Notes: a model not told the origin generated them from the sequence alone. DNA of 64,000 nucleotides from Candidatus Aenigmatarchaeota archaeon (GCA_046539325.1 JBKHHD010000001.1:55437-119436), one strand, 5' to 3'. Counted from the first letter of the stretch, positions 1,367 through 57,299 are shown. A program made the numbers and translations.

Positions 1367-1693
1367 ATGCCGGAGTGTAACACGTGTGGAAAAATTTTTG
1401 ATTCAGAAAGAGGGCTTCACATACACCAATCCCGAGTCCACGCAAGTAAATCCGAAGGAACAGATCAAACCAAATCAACCAAGTTCCTCGAGGTAAAATC
1501 AATAAGACCCTGGATAGTTGCTGCAGTAATAATAATTCTAGGCTTAGGCCTGATAATCGCCACAGATGAGGTTGAAACTGAACGAAAAGAGGACGGTTTG
1601 GAGGAAAGCTTCAGCAGGGATTTGAAGCTTGTGGTGGAGGAAAATGAAACAGAAGACAAAGCAAAGGAAGTTGATGACTATGCCGAGGGATGA
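1367..1693 (+). CDS. C2H2 zinc-finger protein with one transmembrane helix
   Basis: CNTCGKIFDSERGLHIHQSRVH, then WIVAAVIIILGLGLIIA and an acidic tail. Confidence 0.65.
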   Translation: MPECNTCGKIFDSERGLHIHQSRVHASKSEGTDQTKSTKFLEVKSIRPWIVAAVIIILGLGLIIATDEVETERKEDGLEESFSRDLKLVVEENETEDKAKEVDDYAEG

Positions 1694-34339: not shown

Positions 34340-34369
34340 GTATGTGTCAACCATTTGAGGAGATTGATA

Positions 34370-34921
34370 ATGTACAAGATACTAGAGGTTAAAGACACAA
34401 TAAGAGTCGATCCAGAAAAGTTCAGTATGGAGCTTGAGGACTCCGTTTACGAATCCCTGAGAGAAAAGTATGAAGGACTATTGAGGCCTGAAATAGGCTT
34501 CATACTATCCGTTGAAGAAGTAACGGATATAGGTGAAGGAAAGATTCTTCCTGAAGACGGTGCAGCCCACTATCCTGCAGAGTTCAAGATGCTTGTCTTC
34601 GAACCACAGGAACACGAGGTAGTCATAGGGGAAGTTGTTGATGTGACGGAGTTTGGTGGTTTTGTAAGGATAGGGCCAATAGACGCTCTCATACACGTCT
34701 CCCAGGTTATGGACGACTACGTCAACTACGACGAAAAGAACAATTCTCTGGAAGGCAAGGAGACAGGAAAGCGTCTGAAGAACGGTGATCTTGTAAGATC
34801 AAGGATAATCTCAGTATCTTACTCCGAGGACAACAAAGTGGGCCTTACGATGAAACAGCCAAGGCTTGGTGCTCTGAAATGGTTAGAAGAAGGCGAAGAA
34901 AATGAAGAAGAGGAAGAATAA
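34370..34921 (+). CDS. rpoE1: RNA polymerase subunit E' (Rpo7)
   Basis: GKILPEDGAAH, FGGFVRIGPIDALIHVSQVMDD, GLTMKQPRLG. Confidence 0.96.
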   Translation: MYKILEVKDTIRVDPEKFSMELEDSVYESLREKYEGLLRPEIGFILSVEEVTDIGEGKILPEDGAAHYPAEFKMLVFEPQEHEVVIGEVVDVTEFGGFVRIGPIDALIHVSQVMDDYVNYDEKNNSLEGKETGKRLKNGDLVRSRIISVSYSEDNKVGLTMKQPRLGALKWLEEGEENEEEEE

Positions 34922-35149: not shown

Positions 35150-35584
35150 ATGAAGGTAGAAATAAAGGAAAGGAAAAAGAACCCTGTGCTAGACAGAAGA
35201 TTGATAGAAGGAACTGTAGAACACGCAGGTGAAGCTACTCCTTCCTCTGAAGCTCTAAAAGGATTCCTTGCAGAGGAACTAGACTCAGAAGAGGAAAGCA
35301 TCGAAATTAAAAAGATATTTACAATAAGAGGAATGCAAAAAAGCAAGTTCTGGGCAAGAGAACATGGAGATATTGAAGCTTCCGAAGAAGCAGAGAAAGG
35401 AGAAAAGAAGGAAGAATCCGGAGGCAAAAACTACGAAGAAGTATTAGGCGGAAGTATCTCAGATGCAAAAGATGAGATAGAGGAAATGGACGATCCAGAC
35501 TACGAGAAGTTGATGGAAGTTGAAAAGAACAATAAGGACAGAAAAGGTATGAAGAAATATCTGGAGAAGAACATAGGTGAATAA
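35150..35584 (+). CDS. rps24e: Ribosomal protein S24e with extra C-terminal domain
   Basis: [13 protein letters not shown] core; between spt4 and S27ae; extra YEEVLGGSI...NKDRKGM domain. Confidence 0.9.
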
Positions 35585-35814: not shown

Positions 35815-37773
35815 CTAGACCAAAAGAGGCACGAATATAAGAGCTGTCATTGCAACCAGCTTTATGAGGACATTCAGAGAGGGGCCTGAAGTATCTTTCA
35901 TTGGATCACCGATAGTATCCCCTACAACTGCTGCAGAGTGGGCATCAGAACCCTTACCCCCGTAGTTACCGTTTTCTATATGTTTCTTAGCGTTGTCCCA
36001 AGCTCCGCCTGCATTGGCCATTGTTACAGCAAGGAGGAATCCCGTTGAAATATTCCCAGCAAGCATTCCTGCGAGGGCCTCAGGACCCAGAAGAAGTCCA
36101 ACAACTATAGGCGAAAGTATAGCTATTACTCCAGGAAGAACCATCTCCTTGAGGGCTGAATCCGTTGAAATAGCTATACATGACGAGTAGTCAGGCTTCT
36201 CATCACCTGAAAGAATATTCATATCTTCGAACTGCCTTCTTATCTCATCTATCATCTTGCTTGCGCTTTTGCCCACTGATCTCATCGTAAGAGCTGAGAA
36301 AATAAAGGGTAGTAGAGCGCCAATGAACAGACCACCAACTATCATAGGCTGAGTAAGTGCTACGTCGGCTGCCTTCAGACCAACGTTCTGCGTGTAGGTA
36401 ACGAAAAGCGTAAGTGAAGCAAGGGCTGCGGAGCCTATGGCAAATCCCTTACCTATTGCTGCTGTGGTGTTACCTATCGAATCAAGAGCTTCGGCCCTCT
36501 CCCTCACGTCCTGGCCCATCTCTGCCATCTCAGCTATTCCAGCAGCGTTGTCAGCTACAGGTCCGTAACAGTCCGTTGCAAGCGTTATGCCTAGCGTTGA
36601 TAACATTCCTATAGACGCTATACCGATACCGTAGAGTCCTGCGAAATAATATGAAATTAACATGGCAGCAGATACCGTAAGCATAGGAACAAGGGTTGAA
36701 ATCATTCCTGTGGAAAAGCCAGCTATTATGTTTGTAGCGGCGCCACCTATCGATTCCTTTGCAATATTTCTCGTTGGTTTGTGTTTGCTGGCGGTGTAGT
36801 ACTCAGTCATAAGGCCTATAATTACACCGGCCAGAAGCCCTGAAACTATAGAGTAAAATACGCCAATCACTATTTCAGGGAAGAGATGCTGCATCCCGAA
36901 ATACATGAAGACAGGGGCAAGAATGGCTGCTCCGAAGGTTCCTCTGTTCAGGGCCCAGTGTAGGTTCTCCTCTCCACCAACGAAGAAGTATCCAATCATG
37001 GATGCTATTATTCCAGCTGCGCCTATGAAAAGGGGAAATACTACAGCGCCTGCAGCCTCCATGGTTATAGCTCCTATCGCCATCGTGGCCACGATCGCCT
37101 CGACGTATGACTCGAAAAGGTCCGCGCCCATTGCCGCTACGTCACCTACGTTGTCCCCGACGTTGTCCGCGACTACGCCCGGATTCCTTGGATCGTCCTC
37201 AGGGATATCCTCCTCCACCTTTCCCACAAGATCCGCTCCCATATCCGCAGTTTTCGTGTAAATTCCACCTCCGACGCGCGCGAACAGCGCTACTGAAGAA
37301 GCTCCGAATGCAAAGCCGAAAAGTATCTCGGGGTCAGGAAAGACGTAGTAGAAAACTGCTATACCCAAAAGACCGAAGCCTACGACAGACATTCCCATAA
37401 CGGTTCCTGAGGAAAAAGCAATTCCCAATCCTTTCCCGAGGCTATCCTTCACTGCTTCTGATGTCCTGGAGTTGGAGCTTGTGGCTGTAGACATTCCTAT
37501 AACTCCTGCAAGCGAGCTGAGGAAAGCTCCGAAGACGAAGGTAAGGGCAGTCTGTGGGTTTATAAAGTAGAAAAGGACAGAAGCTATCACAACAACAACC
37601 ACGGACAGGTACTTGAACTCCTGTGTAAGAAACGTCCTCGCTCCTTCCTTTATGTGATCCGACATCTCCCTTGCCTTTTCAGGTCCCCGGTCCTTCTTCT
37701 TTATCCTCCAGGTCAAAATTACTGCGAAAATTAATGCTATGATAGAAGCAGTTACTGCTATCGTTACGTGCAT
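35815..37773 (-). CDS. hppA: Membrane ion-translocating pyrophosphatase, K+-dependent type
   Basis: GGGIYTKTADMGADLVGKVE, DNVGDNVGD, GNTTAA, GGAWDNAKK, GDPMKDTSGP; start at ATG 37773. Confidence 0.95.
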   Translation of the reverse strand: MHVTIAVTASIIALIFAVILTWRIKKKDRGPEKAREMSDHIKEGARTFLTQEFKYLSVVVVVIASVLFYFINPQTALTFVFGAFLSSLAGVIGMSTATSSNSRTSEAVKDSLGKGLGIAFSSGTVMGMSVVGFGLLGIAVFYYVFPDPEILFGFAFGASSVALFARVGGGIYTKTADMGADLVGKVEEDIPEDDPRNPGVVADNVGDNVGDVAAMGADLFESYVEAIVATMAIGAITMEAAGAVVFPLFIGAAGIIASMIGYFFVGGEENLHWALNRGTFGAAILAPVFMYFGMQHLFPEIVIGVFYSIVSGLLAGVIIGLMTEYYTASKHKPTRNIAKESIGGAATNIIAGFSTGMISTLVPMLTVSAAMLISYYFAGLYGIGIASIGMLSTLGITLATDCYGPVADNAAGIAEMAEMGQDVRERAEALDSIGNTTAAIGKGFAIGSAALASLTLFVTYTQNVGLKAADVALTQPMIVGGLFIGALLPFIFSALTMRSVGKSASKMIDEIRRQFEDMNILSGDEKPDYSSCIAISTDSALKEMVLPGVIAILSPIVVGLLLGPEALAGMLAGNISTGFLLAVTMANAGGAWDNAKKHIENGNYGGKGSDAHSAAVVGDTIGDPMKDTSGPSLNVLIKLVAMTALIFVPLLV

Positions 37774-37856
37774 AACCTGAACTAGTTTTCCGTTGTTTTT
37801 AAAATTTCTAACGAAACCACAAAGATATTTAAATTTTAGTATTAAATAGTAACAAT

Positions 37857-38765
37857 ATGTCAGAAAATGAACAACCTGAGGCTTCAAAGGAGGTATACGA
37901 AAAACTCCCCTGGGACAAAATAATGAGTGAAAGAAATGAAAATGAAGAAGGTCTGGAATCATTAGCACAAGGCTCATATAAATGGGATCAGGAAGTAGAC
38001 AAACTTGCTTCAGAAAAGAAACCGGACAATGGTGATTATGAGGCACAGAATGGAACATCTTCTTCAACTGATTCAACTGAACAAAAGACTGTCGAAGTAA
38101 TATATTCATTGCAGCCTGAGATAAAGGACACAGCAGATAAACTTGGTTTAAAATACAACAACGAGATGGACCTATTCTTGAGATGGGGCGAAAAAAGCTA
38201 CGATGGGCAACTTTTAAGAAATGTTGCAAAAAAGGTCTACGGAAAAGAAAGGGGGGCATACAACTCATGGGACGAGATGGATAAAGCCGAAAAACATTCA
38301 GAGGTTATATCCCTGGGATTTAAGATGACAGATCCCGAATTTGAAGAAATTGCGGAATGTAGCAGTCTTACCGAAGCCTCAGAATTAATAGCCGAAGAAA
38401 TCGAAAACAAGTACGAGGACAGTTACACGTCACAAACCATACAGAAAATACTCAGAGAAGAAGCGCCAGAAATACACAGAGATCTAATGGATCCTTCCTT
38501 CAAGAGGAAAATAAAAAATAAGGTAGACAAAGAGTTTTTGAAGGCCGTGGACCCGGCCACAAAATCACTGGAACCTCTTGTTAGAGAGAGTGAAGAACAA
38601 TTTGCAGGAAGGTCCTATAACATGAATACAACCGAGGCCAGAAGCCGAAAGAAAGAAAGAAAGGAGATAGAAGAAGAAAACAAAGTACCAATTAACAAAG
38701 AAGTAGCTGCAACTGCTGCTAAAACAGAAGATGGATCAGAATACCTGGAAAGTATTAGTTCTTGA
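37857..38765 (+). CDS. Hypothetical acidic protein
   Basis: 302-aa ORF divergent from hppA with TATA-like sequence upstream; no motif recognised. Confidence 0.7.
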   Translation: MSENEQPEASKEVYEKLPWDKIMSERNENEEGLESLAQGSYKWDQEVDKLASEKKPDNGDYEAQNGTSSSTDSTEQKTVEVIYSLQPEIKDTADKLGLKYNNEMDLFLRWGEKSYDGQLLRNVAKKVYGKERGAYNSWDEMDKAEKHSEVISLGFKMTDPEFEEIAECSSLTEASELIAEEIENKYEDSYTSQTIQKILREEAPEIHRDLMDPSFKRKIKNKVDKEFLKAVDPATKSLEPLVRESEEQFAGRSYNMNTTEARSRKKERKEIEEENKVPINKEVAATAAKTEDGSEYLESISS

Positions 38766-50405: not shown

Positions 50406-51041
50406 TCAGTCCATCTGGCTTTCAATAAACTCCTTCATGCCCTTCCTATTCTTGTTCTCTTCTTCCAACTCCAGAAGGAGTTCGAAGTCCGGATTTTCCA
50501 GATCATCTATAGATTCCTTCGCTTCGCCTATAGTTCCACCTAAAATATCCTCATACCTTTCCTTCTCCTGCTCGTCTACTTTCTCATGTAACTGTGATTG
50601 ATGGATTGAAAGACCTCTCTTTGTCTCAAACTCCCTTCCGCATTCATCACAGATGTACAGTTCCTCTTCTTCCTCTTCCTCTTCCTCTACTTCTTCCTCT
50701 TCTTCTTCATGCGCACGTGAGCGGTGCACTTCAAGTCCTTGTTCCGTGGAGAAGGTCTTACCACACTCTTCACATTCAAACTCTTCCTCTAAAGGAAGTT
50801 CCTTTTCGGGTGGCTGGACTAAGACGTACTCACCAGCATCTACGAGCCTTATTCTTATGGAGGAAGGTGGCTTCTGGGCTCCTCTTTTCCATATTCTATC
50901 ATTAAGGTCCTGATCGAGCTTGATATCTTTATCCGTCTGCTTCATAGCAAATTTCTTAATCTCACGCACAGCCCTTGCTGCGCGGTTTCTTCTCTCCACT
51001 TTCTTCACATCTAACGGAACGGAAAAGACGTTCTCTTCCAT
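50406..51041 (-). CDS. rpl31e: Ribosomal protein L31e fused to two C2H2 zinc fingers and a C-terminal domain
   Basis: VPL...RAARAVREIKKF...LNDRIWKRG..KPP.SIR core; between L39e and eIF6. Confidence 0.9.
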   Translation of the reverse strand: MEENVFSVPLDVKKVERRNRAARAVREIKKFAMKQTDKDIKLDQDLNDRIWKRGAQKPPSSIRIRLVDAGEYVLVQPPEKELPLEEEFECEECGKTFSTEQGLEVHRSRAHEEEEEEVEEEEEEEEELYICDECGREFETKRGLSIHQSQLHEKVDEQEKERYEDILGGTIGEAKESIDDLENPDFELLLELEEENKNRKGMKEFIESQMD

Positions 51042-51046
51042 AGAAA

Positions 51047-51202
51047 TCAGTCTCTCCAATGTTTGTCCTTGTTCACTCTAATCCTTCTCGTTCTGCTCCT
51101 TTTCATTCCGTACTTCTTTATGGATGCCCATACAGGAGCATCAGAGAGGTTGTCCTTCTTGATTAGCTTCCTCTTTTTCCCTTTCGTTTTTCTCGAAGAC
51201 AT
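51047..51202 (-). CDS. rpl39e: Ribosomal protein L39e
   Basis: Below track cutoff. MSSRKTKGKKRKLIKK...APVW..IK...HWRD; expected position before L31e. Confidence 0.88.
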   Translation of the reverse strand: MSSRKTKGKKRKLIKKDNLSDAPVWASIKKYGMKRSRTRRIRVNKDKHWRD

Positions 51203-56606: not shown

Positions 56607-57230
56607 TCAGTAGCCTCCTCTCTTCATCCCTTTCCATTGCTCGGCAGCACTTTTATTTCTTTCGTCTTCCTTTTCTTCTTCGTCTTCTTCCTCCTCTCCT
56701 TTCTGTTCTTCTACTTCCTCTTCGTCATCCGGAATGCTTGCTGAGCGCTTTGCTATCTTCGGTCTCTGCTTAGGAGGTTTTCCACCACCAACCTCTGCAT
56801 TCTTTATAGAGTCCTGAACCTCCTGGAACATTTCTTCGTTCTGTAGCTCCTGGTTTTTAGGGAAAATAGCTCCTGTGGGCGTTCCTGCGTTCTCGTCGTC
56901 CGTAAACCTCGGGAATATCTGTATGTATGCGTGCGGAACCATCTGTCCTCCTGCCTCCTTCACGTTCATCGTCACTGAGACGCCGTCCGCTTCCAGTCCC
57001 TCCATAACTTTATGCATCGTTTCCCTGAGAAGTCCCATGGCTTCCTGCCACTCCTTTTCCGTAAGCTCCAACAGGCTCTCCTTATGGTCCTTGGGGACTA
57101 TGTTCGTCTGACCCTTTGCCCTTGGTTCCGGGTACTCTAGCCAGGCGTAGAAGTTCTCCGTCTCTCCTACGACCCAGAGGTCATTGGGCTTGTTGTTTAT
57201 GAAATGGCAAAATGGACACTGTTGCGGCAT
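56607..57230 (-). CDS. HIT-family protein with altered triad and charged tail
   Basis: CPFC, P.AKGQT.IVPK.H, AGGQMVPHAYIQIFPR. Confidence 0.82.
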   Translation of the reverse strand: MPQQCPFCHFINNKPNDLWVVGETENFYAWLEYPEPRAKGQTNIVPKDHKESLLELTEKEWQEAMGLLRETMHKVMEGLEADGVSVTMNVKEAGGQMVPHAYIQIFPRFTDDENAGTPTGAIFPKNQELQNEEMFQEVQDSIKNAEVGGGKPPKQRPKIAKRSASIPDDEEEVEEQKGEEEEDEEEKEDERNKSAAEQWKGMKRGGY

Positions 57231-57299
57231 ATTAGCATATTTAAATAGGAGCTAAATAAAGTTATGGATTAAGGAGCTCCAACACCCCCGCCGATAATC

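Follow-up and report, generated by a model that had tools for sequence, protein, structure and literature searches.

Lineage-specific extensions of ribosomal proteins are already known, and several described systems resemble the one reported here. The P-stalk (aP1, P1/P2) consists of a ribosome anchor, a flexible charged hinge and a conserved C-terminal element, which is present in several copies and fishes for ligands; this element is a short peptide located at one site and it recruits translation GTPases. Eukaryotic eS31 and eL40 are made as ubiquitin fusions, in which ribosomal proteins of both subunits bear the same small folded domain; ubiquitin is N-terminal there, has a beta-grasp fold and is cleaved off. 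The L32e of the halophile Haloarcula marismortui is enlarged by an N-terminal extension composed of an acidic linker and a small module of a nucleic-acid-binding type (helix-hairpin-helix). Promiscuous adaptors such as the J-domain, SAM and UBA are small helical domains found on unrelated ribosome-associated and membrane-anchored carriers. Eukaryote-type ribosomal extensions reach far from the globular core, and the C-terminal tail of uL22, as described in the available part of PMC11186639, passes eL31 towards the translocon on the membrane-facing surface. Archaeal ribosomal proteins are regarded as compact: in the available part of PMC9932298, the archaea/eukaryote-specific ribosomal proteins of archaea are single-domain, and eL31 is given without an extension in either domain of life.

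The proteins analyzed here share features with each of these systems and differ from each in others. They carry a small helical domain, hereafter the helical head, and their architecture is P-stalk-like, with an anchor, a flexible linker and a conserved terminal element. In contrast to the stalk peptide, the head is a folded four-helix domain found on three to seven proteins of both subunits and on non-ribosomal ones, and the genome under study also encodes a stalk-like protein with the usual short tail. Unlike the ubiquitin of eS31 and eL40, the head is mostly C-terminal, all-helical and shows no sign of a cleavage site. The L32e of H. marismortui bears a different module, which is confined to that protein and has no counterpart on membrane proteins, although eL32 is also among the carriers of the head. 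As in promiscuous adaptor domains, a conserved polar motif of the head lies in an inter-helix loop, but neither sequence nor profile similarity to the J-domain, SAM or UBA was found. The long extensions recall those of the eukaryote type, and eL31 has here about 130 extra residues with three folded modules, in contrast to the eL31 of the available part of PMC9932298. The novelty lies in the domain family as such, which extends to seven ribosomal proteins of both subunits, to RNA polymerase and to membrane proteins, is exchanged for a dedicated zinc finger and shows concerted evolution of its copies; in a whole clade of ultra-small symbiotic archaea, as many as seven ribosomal proteins bear this one folded module.

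Two of the fusions are encoded in a 64,000-nucleotide stretch of DNA (GCA_046539325.1, JBKHHD010000001.1:55437-119436; hereafter the window; cf. Table 1). The genome (715 kb in 10 contigs, 91% complete) has an acidic proteome (D+E 18.1% versus K+R 12.2% in 442 long ORFs), and close homologues are named 'Candidatus Aenigmatarchaeota' by their sources. Among sequencing runs, no RNA run was listed as containing it; the DNA runs listed are two possible source samples and two further runs of the same study with a small share, from which neither expression nor habitat is deduced here. The eS24 gene belongs to the classical cluster rpoE'-spt4-rps24e-rps27ae, with the neighbours identified by Pfam, while the eL31 gene is found in the order rpl39e-rpl31e-eif6, with eIF-6 confirmed by Pfam. 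Both products were recognized by their family models: eS24 scored 37.3 bits against Ribosomal_S24e (PF01282; cut-off 24.5), with its tail outside the model, and eL31 scored 55.1 bits against Ribosomal_L31e (PF01198; cut-off 25), though slightly below the cut-off of the NCBIfam L31e equivalog (66.7 versus 68 bits). Since the Pfam matches cover only residues 4-71 of eS24 and 17-72 of eL31, both tails are extra, which bears out the statement of a preliminary description of this DNA that neither protein family normally has the domain.

Table 1. Coordinates of the features of the eS24 and eL31 genes in the window, and of the uL24 gene on contig 2 of the same genome
Feature	Position	Strand	Basis or remark
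eS24 (rps24e) gene	35150-35584	+	144 aa ORF; Pfam Ribosomal_S24e match
eS24 core, residues 4-71	35159-35362	+	Extent of Pfam match
eS24 charged linker, residues 72-94, Glu/Lys-rich	35363-35431	+	Read from sequence
Helical head copy 1, eS24 residues 95-144	35432-35581	+	HMM E 1e-24 to 2e-29; AlphaFold
eL31 (rpl31e) gene	50406-51041	-	211 aa from ATG; Pfam Ribosomal_L31e match
eL31 core, residues 17-72 of 217-aa frame	50844-51011	-	Pfam match
eL31 C2H2 zinc finger 1	50709-50780	-	Pfam zf-C2H2, zf-C2H2_jaz; beta-beta-alpha in model
eL31 poly-Glu spacer between fingers, 16 residues	50661-50708	-	Sequence coordinates
eL31 C2H2 zinc finger 2	50586-50657	-	Pfam zf-C2H2 stretch; finger pattern
Helical head copy 2, eL31 C-terminus	50409-50555	-	HMM E 3e-23 to 2e-28
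uL24 gene	Contig 2, 79368-79892 (L112 69-593)		Acidic linker and one C2H2 finger at end, without helical head

eS24 and eL31 end in the same domain of about 50 residues. The preliminary description had reported that their last 45 residues or so were alike, each behind an acidic linker, and this was confirmed: the tails share 23 of 45 residues in an ungapped alignment, a whole-protein BLASTP comparison aligned the tails alone (26 of 63 residues identical, E 9e-13), both tails sit behind a charged linker, and none of 100,000 composition-preserving shuffles attained 23 identities. Furthermore, the codons differ at 15 of the 23 identical residues and the nucleotide identity is 84/135, indicating conservation at the protein level rather than a DNA repeat. 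The tails are rich in Glu, Asp and Lys and come from a metagenome-type assembly in 10 contigs, which might point to a chance or compositional likeness of two acidic low-complexity sequences, or to an artefact of assembly or annotation; given the shuffles, HMM E-values down to 1e-29, a confidently modelled fold and the presence of the same fusions in 8 of 8 genomes of the family, this explanation has next to no probability, and we regard it as refuted. When profiles built from 3, 27 and 223 tails were compared with every six-frame ORF of the genome, exactly three copies were found, namely those of eS24 and eL31 and one at the C-terminus of uS3, encoded on contig 2; the best of the remaining matches had an E-value of 0.13.

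The eL31 on record is the 211-aa form; an alternative upstream start (TTG at 51059) yields 217 residues. Between its core and its head, the protein contains two C2H2 fingers separated by a run of Glu, which, like the uS3 copy and the non-ribosomal carriers, had been missed in the preliminary description. A finger was accepted when the pattern C-x2-C-x12-H-x4-H with conserved Phe and Leu was accompanied by a model match above cut-off. In eL31, zf-C2H2 (PF00096) matched with 43.1 bits (cut-off 25.2) in two stretches, which places both inserts in the family, and zf-C2H2_jaz scored 29.6 (cut-off 22.6). In the full-length AlphaFold model, eL31 looks like beads on a string, i.e. core, finger, disordered poly-Glu spacer, finger and four-helix head (pTM 0.38). 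The fingers are modelled as beta-beta-alpha units, residues 113-126 of the 211-aa form, in the poly-Glu spacer, have a pLDDT below 50, and the four helices of the head reach 86-90.

The helical nature of the tail, which had been suggested earlier, was supported by modelling. AlphaFold2, run on the eS24 tail with a 33-sequence alignment, predicted four helices in the 57-residue query (5-11, 16-25, 31-41 and 45-55; mean pLDDT 87.7, pTM 0.71), with the first three residues below a pLDDT of 50. A column analysis of 223 instances agrees with this model: helix breakers are found at Gly14, Pro29 and Gly/Asn41, and the intervening segments show a strong hydrophobic moment at 100 degrees. In the same 223 instances, the last inter-helix loop is flanked by a Glu and an Arg that never vary, and conservation reaches 87-91% at two Lys and one Asp and 87-93% at several further polar positions; Lys or Arg is invariant or nearly so at four positions of the otherwise acidic domain. 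The models thus show the tail as an autonomously folding four-helix mini-domain of about 48 residues, which appears to be undescribed. No Pfam family was matched by the two tails at E<=1, and no consistent one by 27 tails at E<=10. NCBIfam gave no match on the tail, PHROGs gave weak matches to unnamed families only, and neither two profiles nor one protein used as queries retrieved anything significant from the PDB sequences (best E 0.4). Among the PDB rows, those of SRP54 and VirB (E 0.4-1.2) were not significant, while those of polyubiquitin turned out to be sums of repeats at chance level (3.9-4.5 bits per domain, i-Evalue about 300-500); a ubiquitin-like beta-grasp was ruled out, as the model is all-helical and there was no significant sequence match. 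Foldseek against the PDB gave a best E of 6.9, and an exhaustive structural scan of 48,161 chains gave a best Z of 5.9 to generic helical pairs, which was rated uninformative. By our own reading of the pattern, the helix-3/turn/helix-4 motif resembles a helix-turn-helix (HTH), but the fold search lends this no support, with no HTH chain among the best 50 of the 48,161 chains; no HTH family was matched in Pfam. UBA was rejected upon hhalign comparison of 223 heads with 11 NAC UBA tails of the clade (probability 0.1% in global and 5.4% in local mode). Rho_N (PF07498) was also rejected: it was matched in none of 70 Nanohaloarchaeota genomes, though 69 of them hold 1-10 heads. General Pfam scans showed no match to SAP or HeH, and the head had no sequence-family match in Pfam to known hibernation factors. 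A full-text search of the literature found no description of the domain.

The suggestion that similar tails occur on other proteins was borne out by an exhaustive search of 1.84 billion representatives, which yielded 361 clusters at E<=1e-3. Of the best 150 of these 361 clusters, 34 are ribosomal (eS24 13, eL31 13, uS3 3, uL24 3, uL22 1, eL32 1) and 116 are not recognisably so, although clusters should not be read as occurrences, since conserved ribosomal proteins collapse into few of them. The latter comprise 42 proteins in which an N-terminal head, an acidic linker, a single transmembrane (TM) helix and an ectodomain follow one another, 12 that bear the head behind TM helices, 11 short proteins, 8 others with a Pfam match (RpoA'', KaiC, MoxR, GINS51, HSBP1-like, HEPN, prohead protease and a C2H2 protein) and 43 without class. 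Among the same best 150, no more than 20 residues separate the head from a terminus in 138, and it is internal in 12 (e.g. GINS51), 25 representatives hold 2-5 copies, and the 30-residue flanks of the head contain 28% Glu and 8% Asp, i.e. 36% acidic residues together. A word-indexed search, the query of which was biased towards ribosomal tails, retrieved 69 longer proteins, 65 of them ribosomal by precomputed Pfam (23 uS3, 18 uL24, 12 eL31, 11 eS24 and 1 eL32), and their sources name them Aenigmatarchaeota and Nanohaloarchaea. Seven ribosomal carriers were found altogether (eS24, uS3, eS6, eL31, uL24, uL22 and eL32), next to RNA polymerase A'', an integrase, GINS, chemotaxis proteins and several membrane-protein families. 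The earlier view of a module displayed on both subunits stands, but the module is not confined to ribosomal proteins: all three carriers in this genome are ribosomal, whereas elsewhere the clusters are mainly non-ribosomal. Four Nanohaloarchaeota genomes contain 6-10 copies each, on uS3, eL31, eS24, uL24 and RpoA'' as well as on Roadblock/LC7, an MCP signalling protein, membrane thioredoxin, two-TM and coiled-coil proteins, and RpoA'' bears two heads in several named MAGs of Nanohaloarchaeota. In family f14 the head is found on uS3 and eS6, behind linkers that are Lys-rich and not acidic, and in one genome it precedes the core-binding domain of a tyrosine integrase. Stand-alone heads are at best putative: one of the 11 short representatives is annotated as partial, others match the N-termini of longer families, and an apparent case at locus L040 is cut by the contig end.

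At E<=1e-5, the head was found in 18 of 371 genomes of the window's phylum. In the Nanohaloarchaeota, 69 of 70 genomes were positive. It is present in all 8 other members of the window's family and in 0 of 8 genomes of the sister family f4; the eS24 of f4 and f5 ends in a long Lys/Glu low-complexity tail without a head. Three f4 eS24 proteins with such Lys/Glu-rich C-terminal tails (loci L055, L058 and L059) are 172, 190 and 352 aa long. Two genomes of another sister family (f6) have the head on uS3 alone, one of them being a single contig that is 90% complete. Altiarchaeales also appear among the source names, with an eL32 bearing an N-terminal head and with a HEPN protein. A strict link to halophily was ruled out, as the Lys-rich family f14 has the head; acidity ratios derived from 3-kb loci were too noisy to use. 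Halophilic Aenigmatarchaeota and Nanohaloarchaeota have been united in one 'ATN' clade (PMC13195033; bioRxiv 10.1101/2024.03.10.584303), and the available parts of these two papers do not mention the domain. A preprint on Nanohaloarchaeal insertions (10.64898/2026.06.17.729505), in its available part, notes terminal indels only as 'difficult to interpret'.

Comparison of orthologous carriers indicates that the helical head is interchangeable with a particular C2H2 finger. Homologues of several carrier families in this genome have a finger where the Nanohaloarchaeal ones have the helical head. This holds for uL24, which ends in a finger here and in a helical head in Nanohaloarchaeota, and for a protein of the finger-linker-TM-ectodomain type, the ectodomain of which matched the head-bearing family with an HMM E of 3.7e-14; a word-indexed search with the P0092 ectodomain returned only itself. 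A finger-TM-thioredoxin-like protein and a two-TM protein with a C-terminal finger are also encoded in this genome. Within Nanohaloarchaeota, Thioredoxin_4/DsbA membrane proteins carry either the helical head or the finger at the N-terminus, in pairs that are 29-31% identical over about 305 aa (E 5e-38 and 3e-35), and a two-TM family has either head (E 1e-12 to 7e-17). By pattern, this finger subtype occurs in six ORFs of the genome, namely eL31 (twice), uL24, three membrane proteins and one nucleotidyltransferase-like protein, while a finger profile gave nine matches in the genome; the membrane-protein fingers are 60-69% identical to those of eL31 and uL24. The nucleotidyltransferase-like protein was considered as an equivalent of the HEPN carrier and discarded, as no significant similarity was found. 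One profile match lies in a 111-aa open frame at 1373-1444 (+) of the window (contig 1, 56809-56880; E 4e-11), and in 8 genomes of the family, this one included, the strand that encodes the uS3 tail also encodes a finger some 2 kb further downstream. The finger is more widely distributed than the helical head, with 117 of 371 genomes of the phylum (including the head-negative f4) and 67 of 70 Nanohaloarchaeota. Both modules occur together in the eL31 described here, in several small or membrane proteins and in the uS3 of family f6 (L015 538-1668 and L016 730-1671), where one C2H2 finger is followed by the helical head and these are the only copies of either module in the two genomes.

The copies of the head evolve in concert. 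In ten genomes, the heads of eS24 and eL31 are not sorted by carrier, the mean identity being 0.66-0.70 between heads of the same carrier and 0.67 between those of different carriers. In three of the ten, the two heads are 91-96% identical in DNA; 89-90 of 90 nucleotides are identical up to a sharp 5' edge, past which only 12-17 of 30 agree, and the linker is close to random. Such a near-identical tract with a sharp edge is the mark of recent gene conversion, which the eS24 and eL31 tails undergo in these three sister genomes. The other nine pairs are all less diverged than that of the window (53% amino-acid identity). A FastTree tree of 62 short instances separated the uS3 head as a stable lineage of its own, and since the Nanohaloarchaeota eL31 head groups in this tree with the Aenigmatarchaeal type, the eL31 fusion looks like the oldest one. 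Nanohaloarchaeal heads on different carriers of the same genome are 0.462 identical (n=59), compared with 0.458 for the same carrier in different genomes (n=16) and 0.433 for different carriers in different genomes (n=199); shuffling of labels gave 0.0038 for this same-genome likeness, a value to be read with the kinship of the genomes in mind, which are not independent, and to which amino-acid composition could contribute.

How might such a module work? Two small interchangeable heads, the four-helix domain and the C2H2 finger, would sit at the free ends of long, charged, disordered linkers and act as flexibly tethered binding modules, fishing, as far as the linker allows, for an abundant ligand common to them. 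The ligand would most likely be RNA, either the ribosome's own surface or mRNA, and the heads would add contacts between ribosome, message, polymerase and membrane-anchored carriers. We infer both the binding itself and RNA as its target, and we put this reading forward tentatively, as the leading one among several. The terminal position on disordered linkers, the tandem copies and the strict polar conservation argue for binding rather than decoration. RNA is favoured because (i) the head swaps with a finger that, in eL31, passes the threshold of Pfam's dsRNA-binding zf-C2H2_jaz, (ii) Lys and Arg are conserved, (iii) many carriers handle nucleic acids (the seven ribosomal proteins, RpoA'', tyrosine integrase, GINS51 and wHTH coiled-coil proteins) and (iv) two genomes have the head on uS3 only, a protein located at the mRNA entry of the ribosome. 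On the other hand, halophile versions of the head are strongly net-acidic, no nucleic-acid-binding family was found by Pfam, PDB sequence searches or the best 50 structural rows, and MCP, Roadblock/LC7, CheW-like, MoxR ATPase and extracytoplasmic thioredoxin carriers have no obvious need of RNA; the chemotaxis and thioredoxin carriers sit uneasily with RNA binding. Moreover, single C2H2 fingers often bind proteins, and the same-genome likeness of heads (0.462 versus 0.433) is explained by co-evolving contacts between proteins no less well than by RNA binding. Protein docking, already raised in the preliminary description as attachment to a common partner, comes close behind RNA as a slightly less probable explanation. 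The helical head, and likewise the finger, would bind its own copies or a common protein hub, and ribosomes, polymerase and membrane carriers might in this way be held together, e.g. with the exit face of the ribosome near the membrane. The same head on unrelated machines and membrane proteins, the multivalency offered by tandem copies, the 60-69% identity of eL31 and uL24 fingers with membrane-protein fingers, the homogenization of eS24 and eL31 heads in 3 of 10 genomes and the slightly greater likeness of same-genome copies (0.0038 on label shuffling, among related genomes) all speak for it, as does the location of three of the four large-subunit carriers (eL31, uL24 and uL22) on the membrane-facing exit surface (PMC11186639, available part). 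Yet the uS3-only genomes offer no second carrier to pair with, no membrane carrier in this genome has the helical head, the small-subunit carriers are distant from the membrane face, and two unrelated folds would need to serve the same contact.

Other readings appear less probable than RNA binding or docking. In a wider proposal, which we consider unlikely, the four-helix head and the C2H2 finger on charged linkers would form a 'tether code' of the ATN-clade DPANN archaea that networks ribosomal subunits, polymerase, replisome parts and membrane proteins, possibly in a single membrane-proximal assembly for transcription, translation and insertion. Somewhat less likely still, the charged linker might be the functional part, serving solubility or spacing, and the tip domain might merely protect its free end, e.g. 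from unfoldases. Such a passive cap would suit the terminal position in 138 of the best 150 of 361 clusters, always beside low-complexity charged sequence, the mutual replacement of two unrelated mini-folds, the long Lys/Glu tails without a head on eS24 of domain-negative sister families and the beads-on-a-string model of eL31 (pTM 0.38), but it does not explain why a Glu and an Arg never vary among 223 instances and several further polar positions are 87-93% conserved across acidic and Lys-rich lineages, why 25 of these 150 representatives are tandem and 12 internal, as inside GINS51, or why the uS3, uL24, eL31 and RpoA'' fusions are kept across a phylum. A ribosome-specific tag pairing subunits or whole ribosomes (hibernation or polysome order), which is how we take the role proposed in the preliminary description, is the most doubtful of the functional readings. 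The head does occur on both subunits, all three copies in this genome are ribosomal, most cellular copies are probably on ribosomes given the abundance of these particles, and even uS3-only genomes would permit ribosome-ribosome contacts. Nevertheless, only 34 of the best 150 of 361 carrier clusters are recognisably ribosomal and 116 are not, which is the observation that the preliminary description itself had named as contrary to such a tag, and it was made outside this genome; two genomes have the head on uS3 alone, carriers differ between lineages, a constitutively fused head offers no obvious switch, and no Pfam family, hibernation factors included, resembles it. If heads bind RNA, as we favour, or one another, they would represent a new way to hold ribosome, message, polymerase and membrane together and a direct handle on the organisation of gene expression in nano-sized cells; were the wider network real, it would be a previously unknown mode of organising their cytoplasm.

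The family merits a Pfam entry. Fused proteins are at present mis-annotated, as illustrated by a close homologue of eL31 that one source names simply 'C2H2-type zinc finger protein', and the tails add non-orthologous sequence to the ribosomal-protein markers of DPANN phylogeny. Near-identical head repeats can also break assemblies: in genome G007, one of the three with gene conversion, the heads of eS24 and eL31 share 96% of their DNA sequence, contigs C7 (at its end), C35 (at its start) and C24 (at both ends) stop inside head-coding sequence, and the repeat is probably what breaks this assembly.

Several further observations concern individual genes. In another assembly, the eS24 protein P0018 (167 aa) appears to bear both finger and head, as judged by Pfam S24e and the finger pattern. 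At loci L086 (genome G371) and L114 (genome G006), two different head-bearing genes adjoin on the same strand. P0211 (561 aa) has a caudovirus-type prohead protease domain with a helical head just after it, which suggests that this carrier belongs to a virus or provirus of these archaea; a search of a viral contig collection with P0211 found no relative. In the window, the RpoE' encoded near eS24 (Rpb7-like, with SHS2 and S1 domains; 34355-34921, +) has a Glu run at its end. A long ORF adjoining rps27ae (35815-38268, -) resembles, by eye, a membrane-bound proton-pumping pyrophosphatase, and its listed ATG is probably too far upstream. Near the C-terminus of a HIT-domain protein (56610-57251, -), some 28 residues form an acidic run. 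Finally, contig 3 of this genome encodes an acidic coiled-coil protein (74954-75991, -), the gene of which neighbours small pilin-like genes and an ORF of 2989 aa. This protein has no head, whereas homologous proteins of two sister genomes (L113 and L114) end in one.
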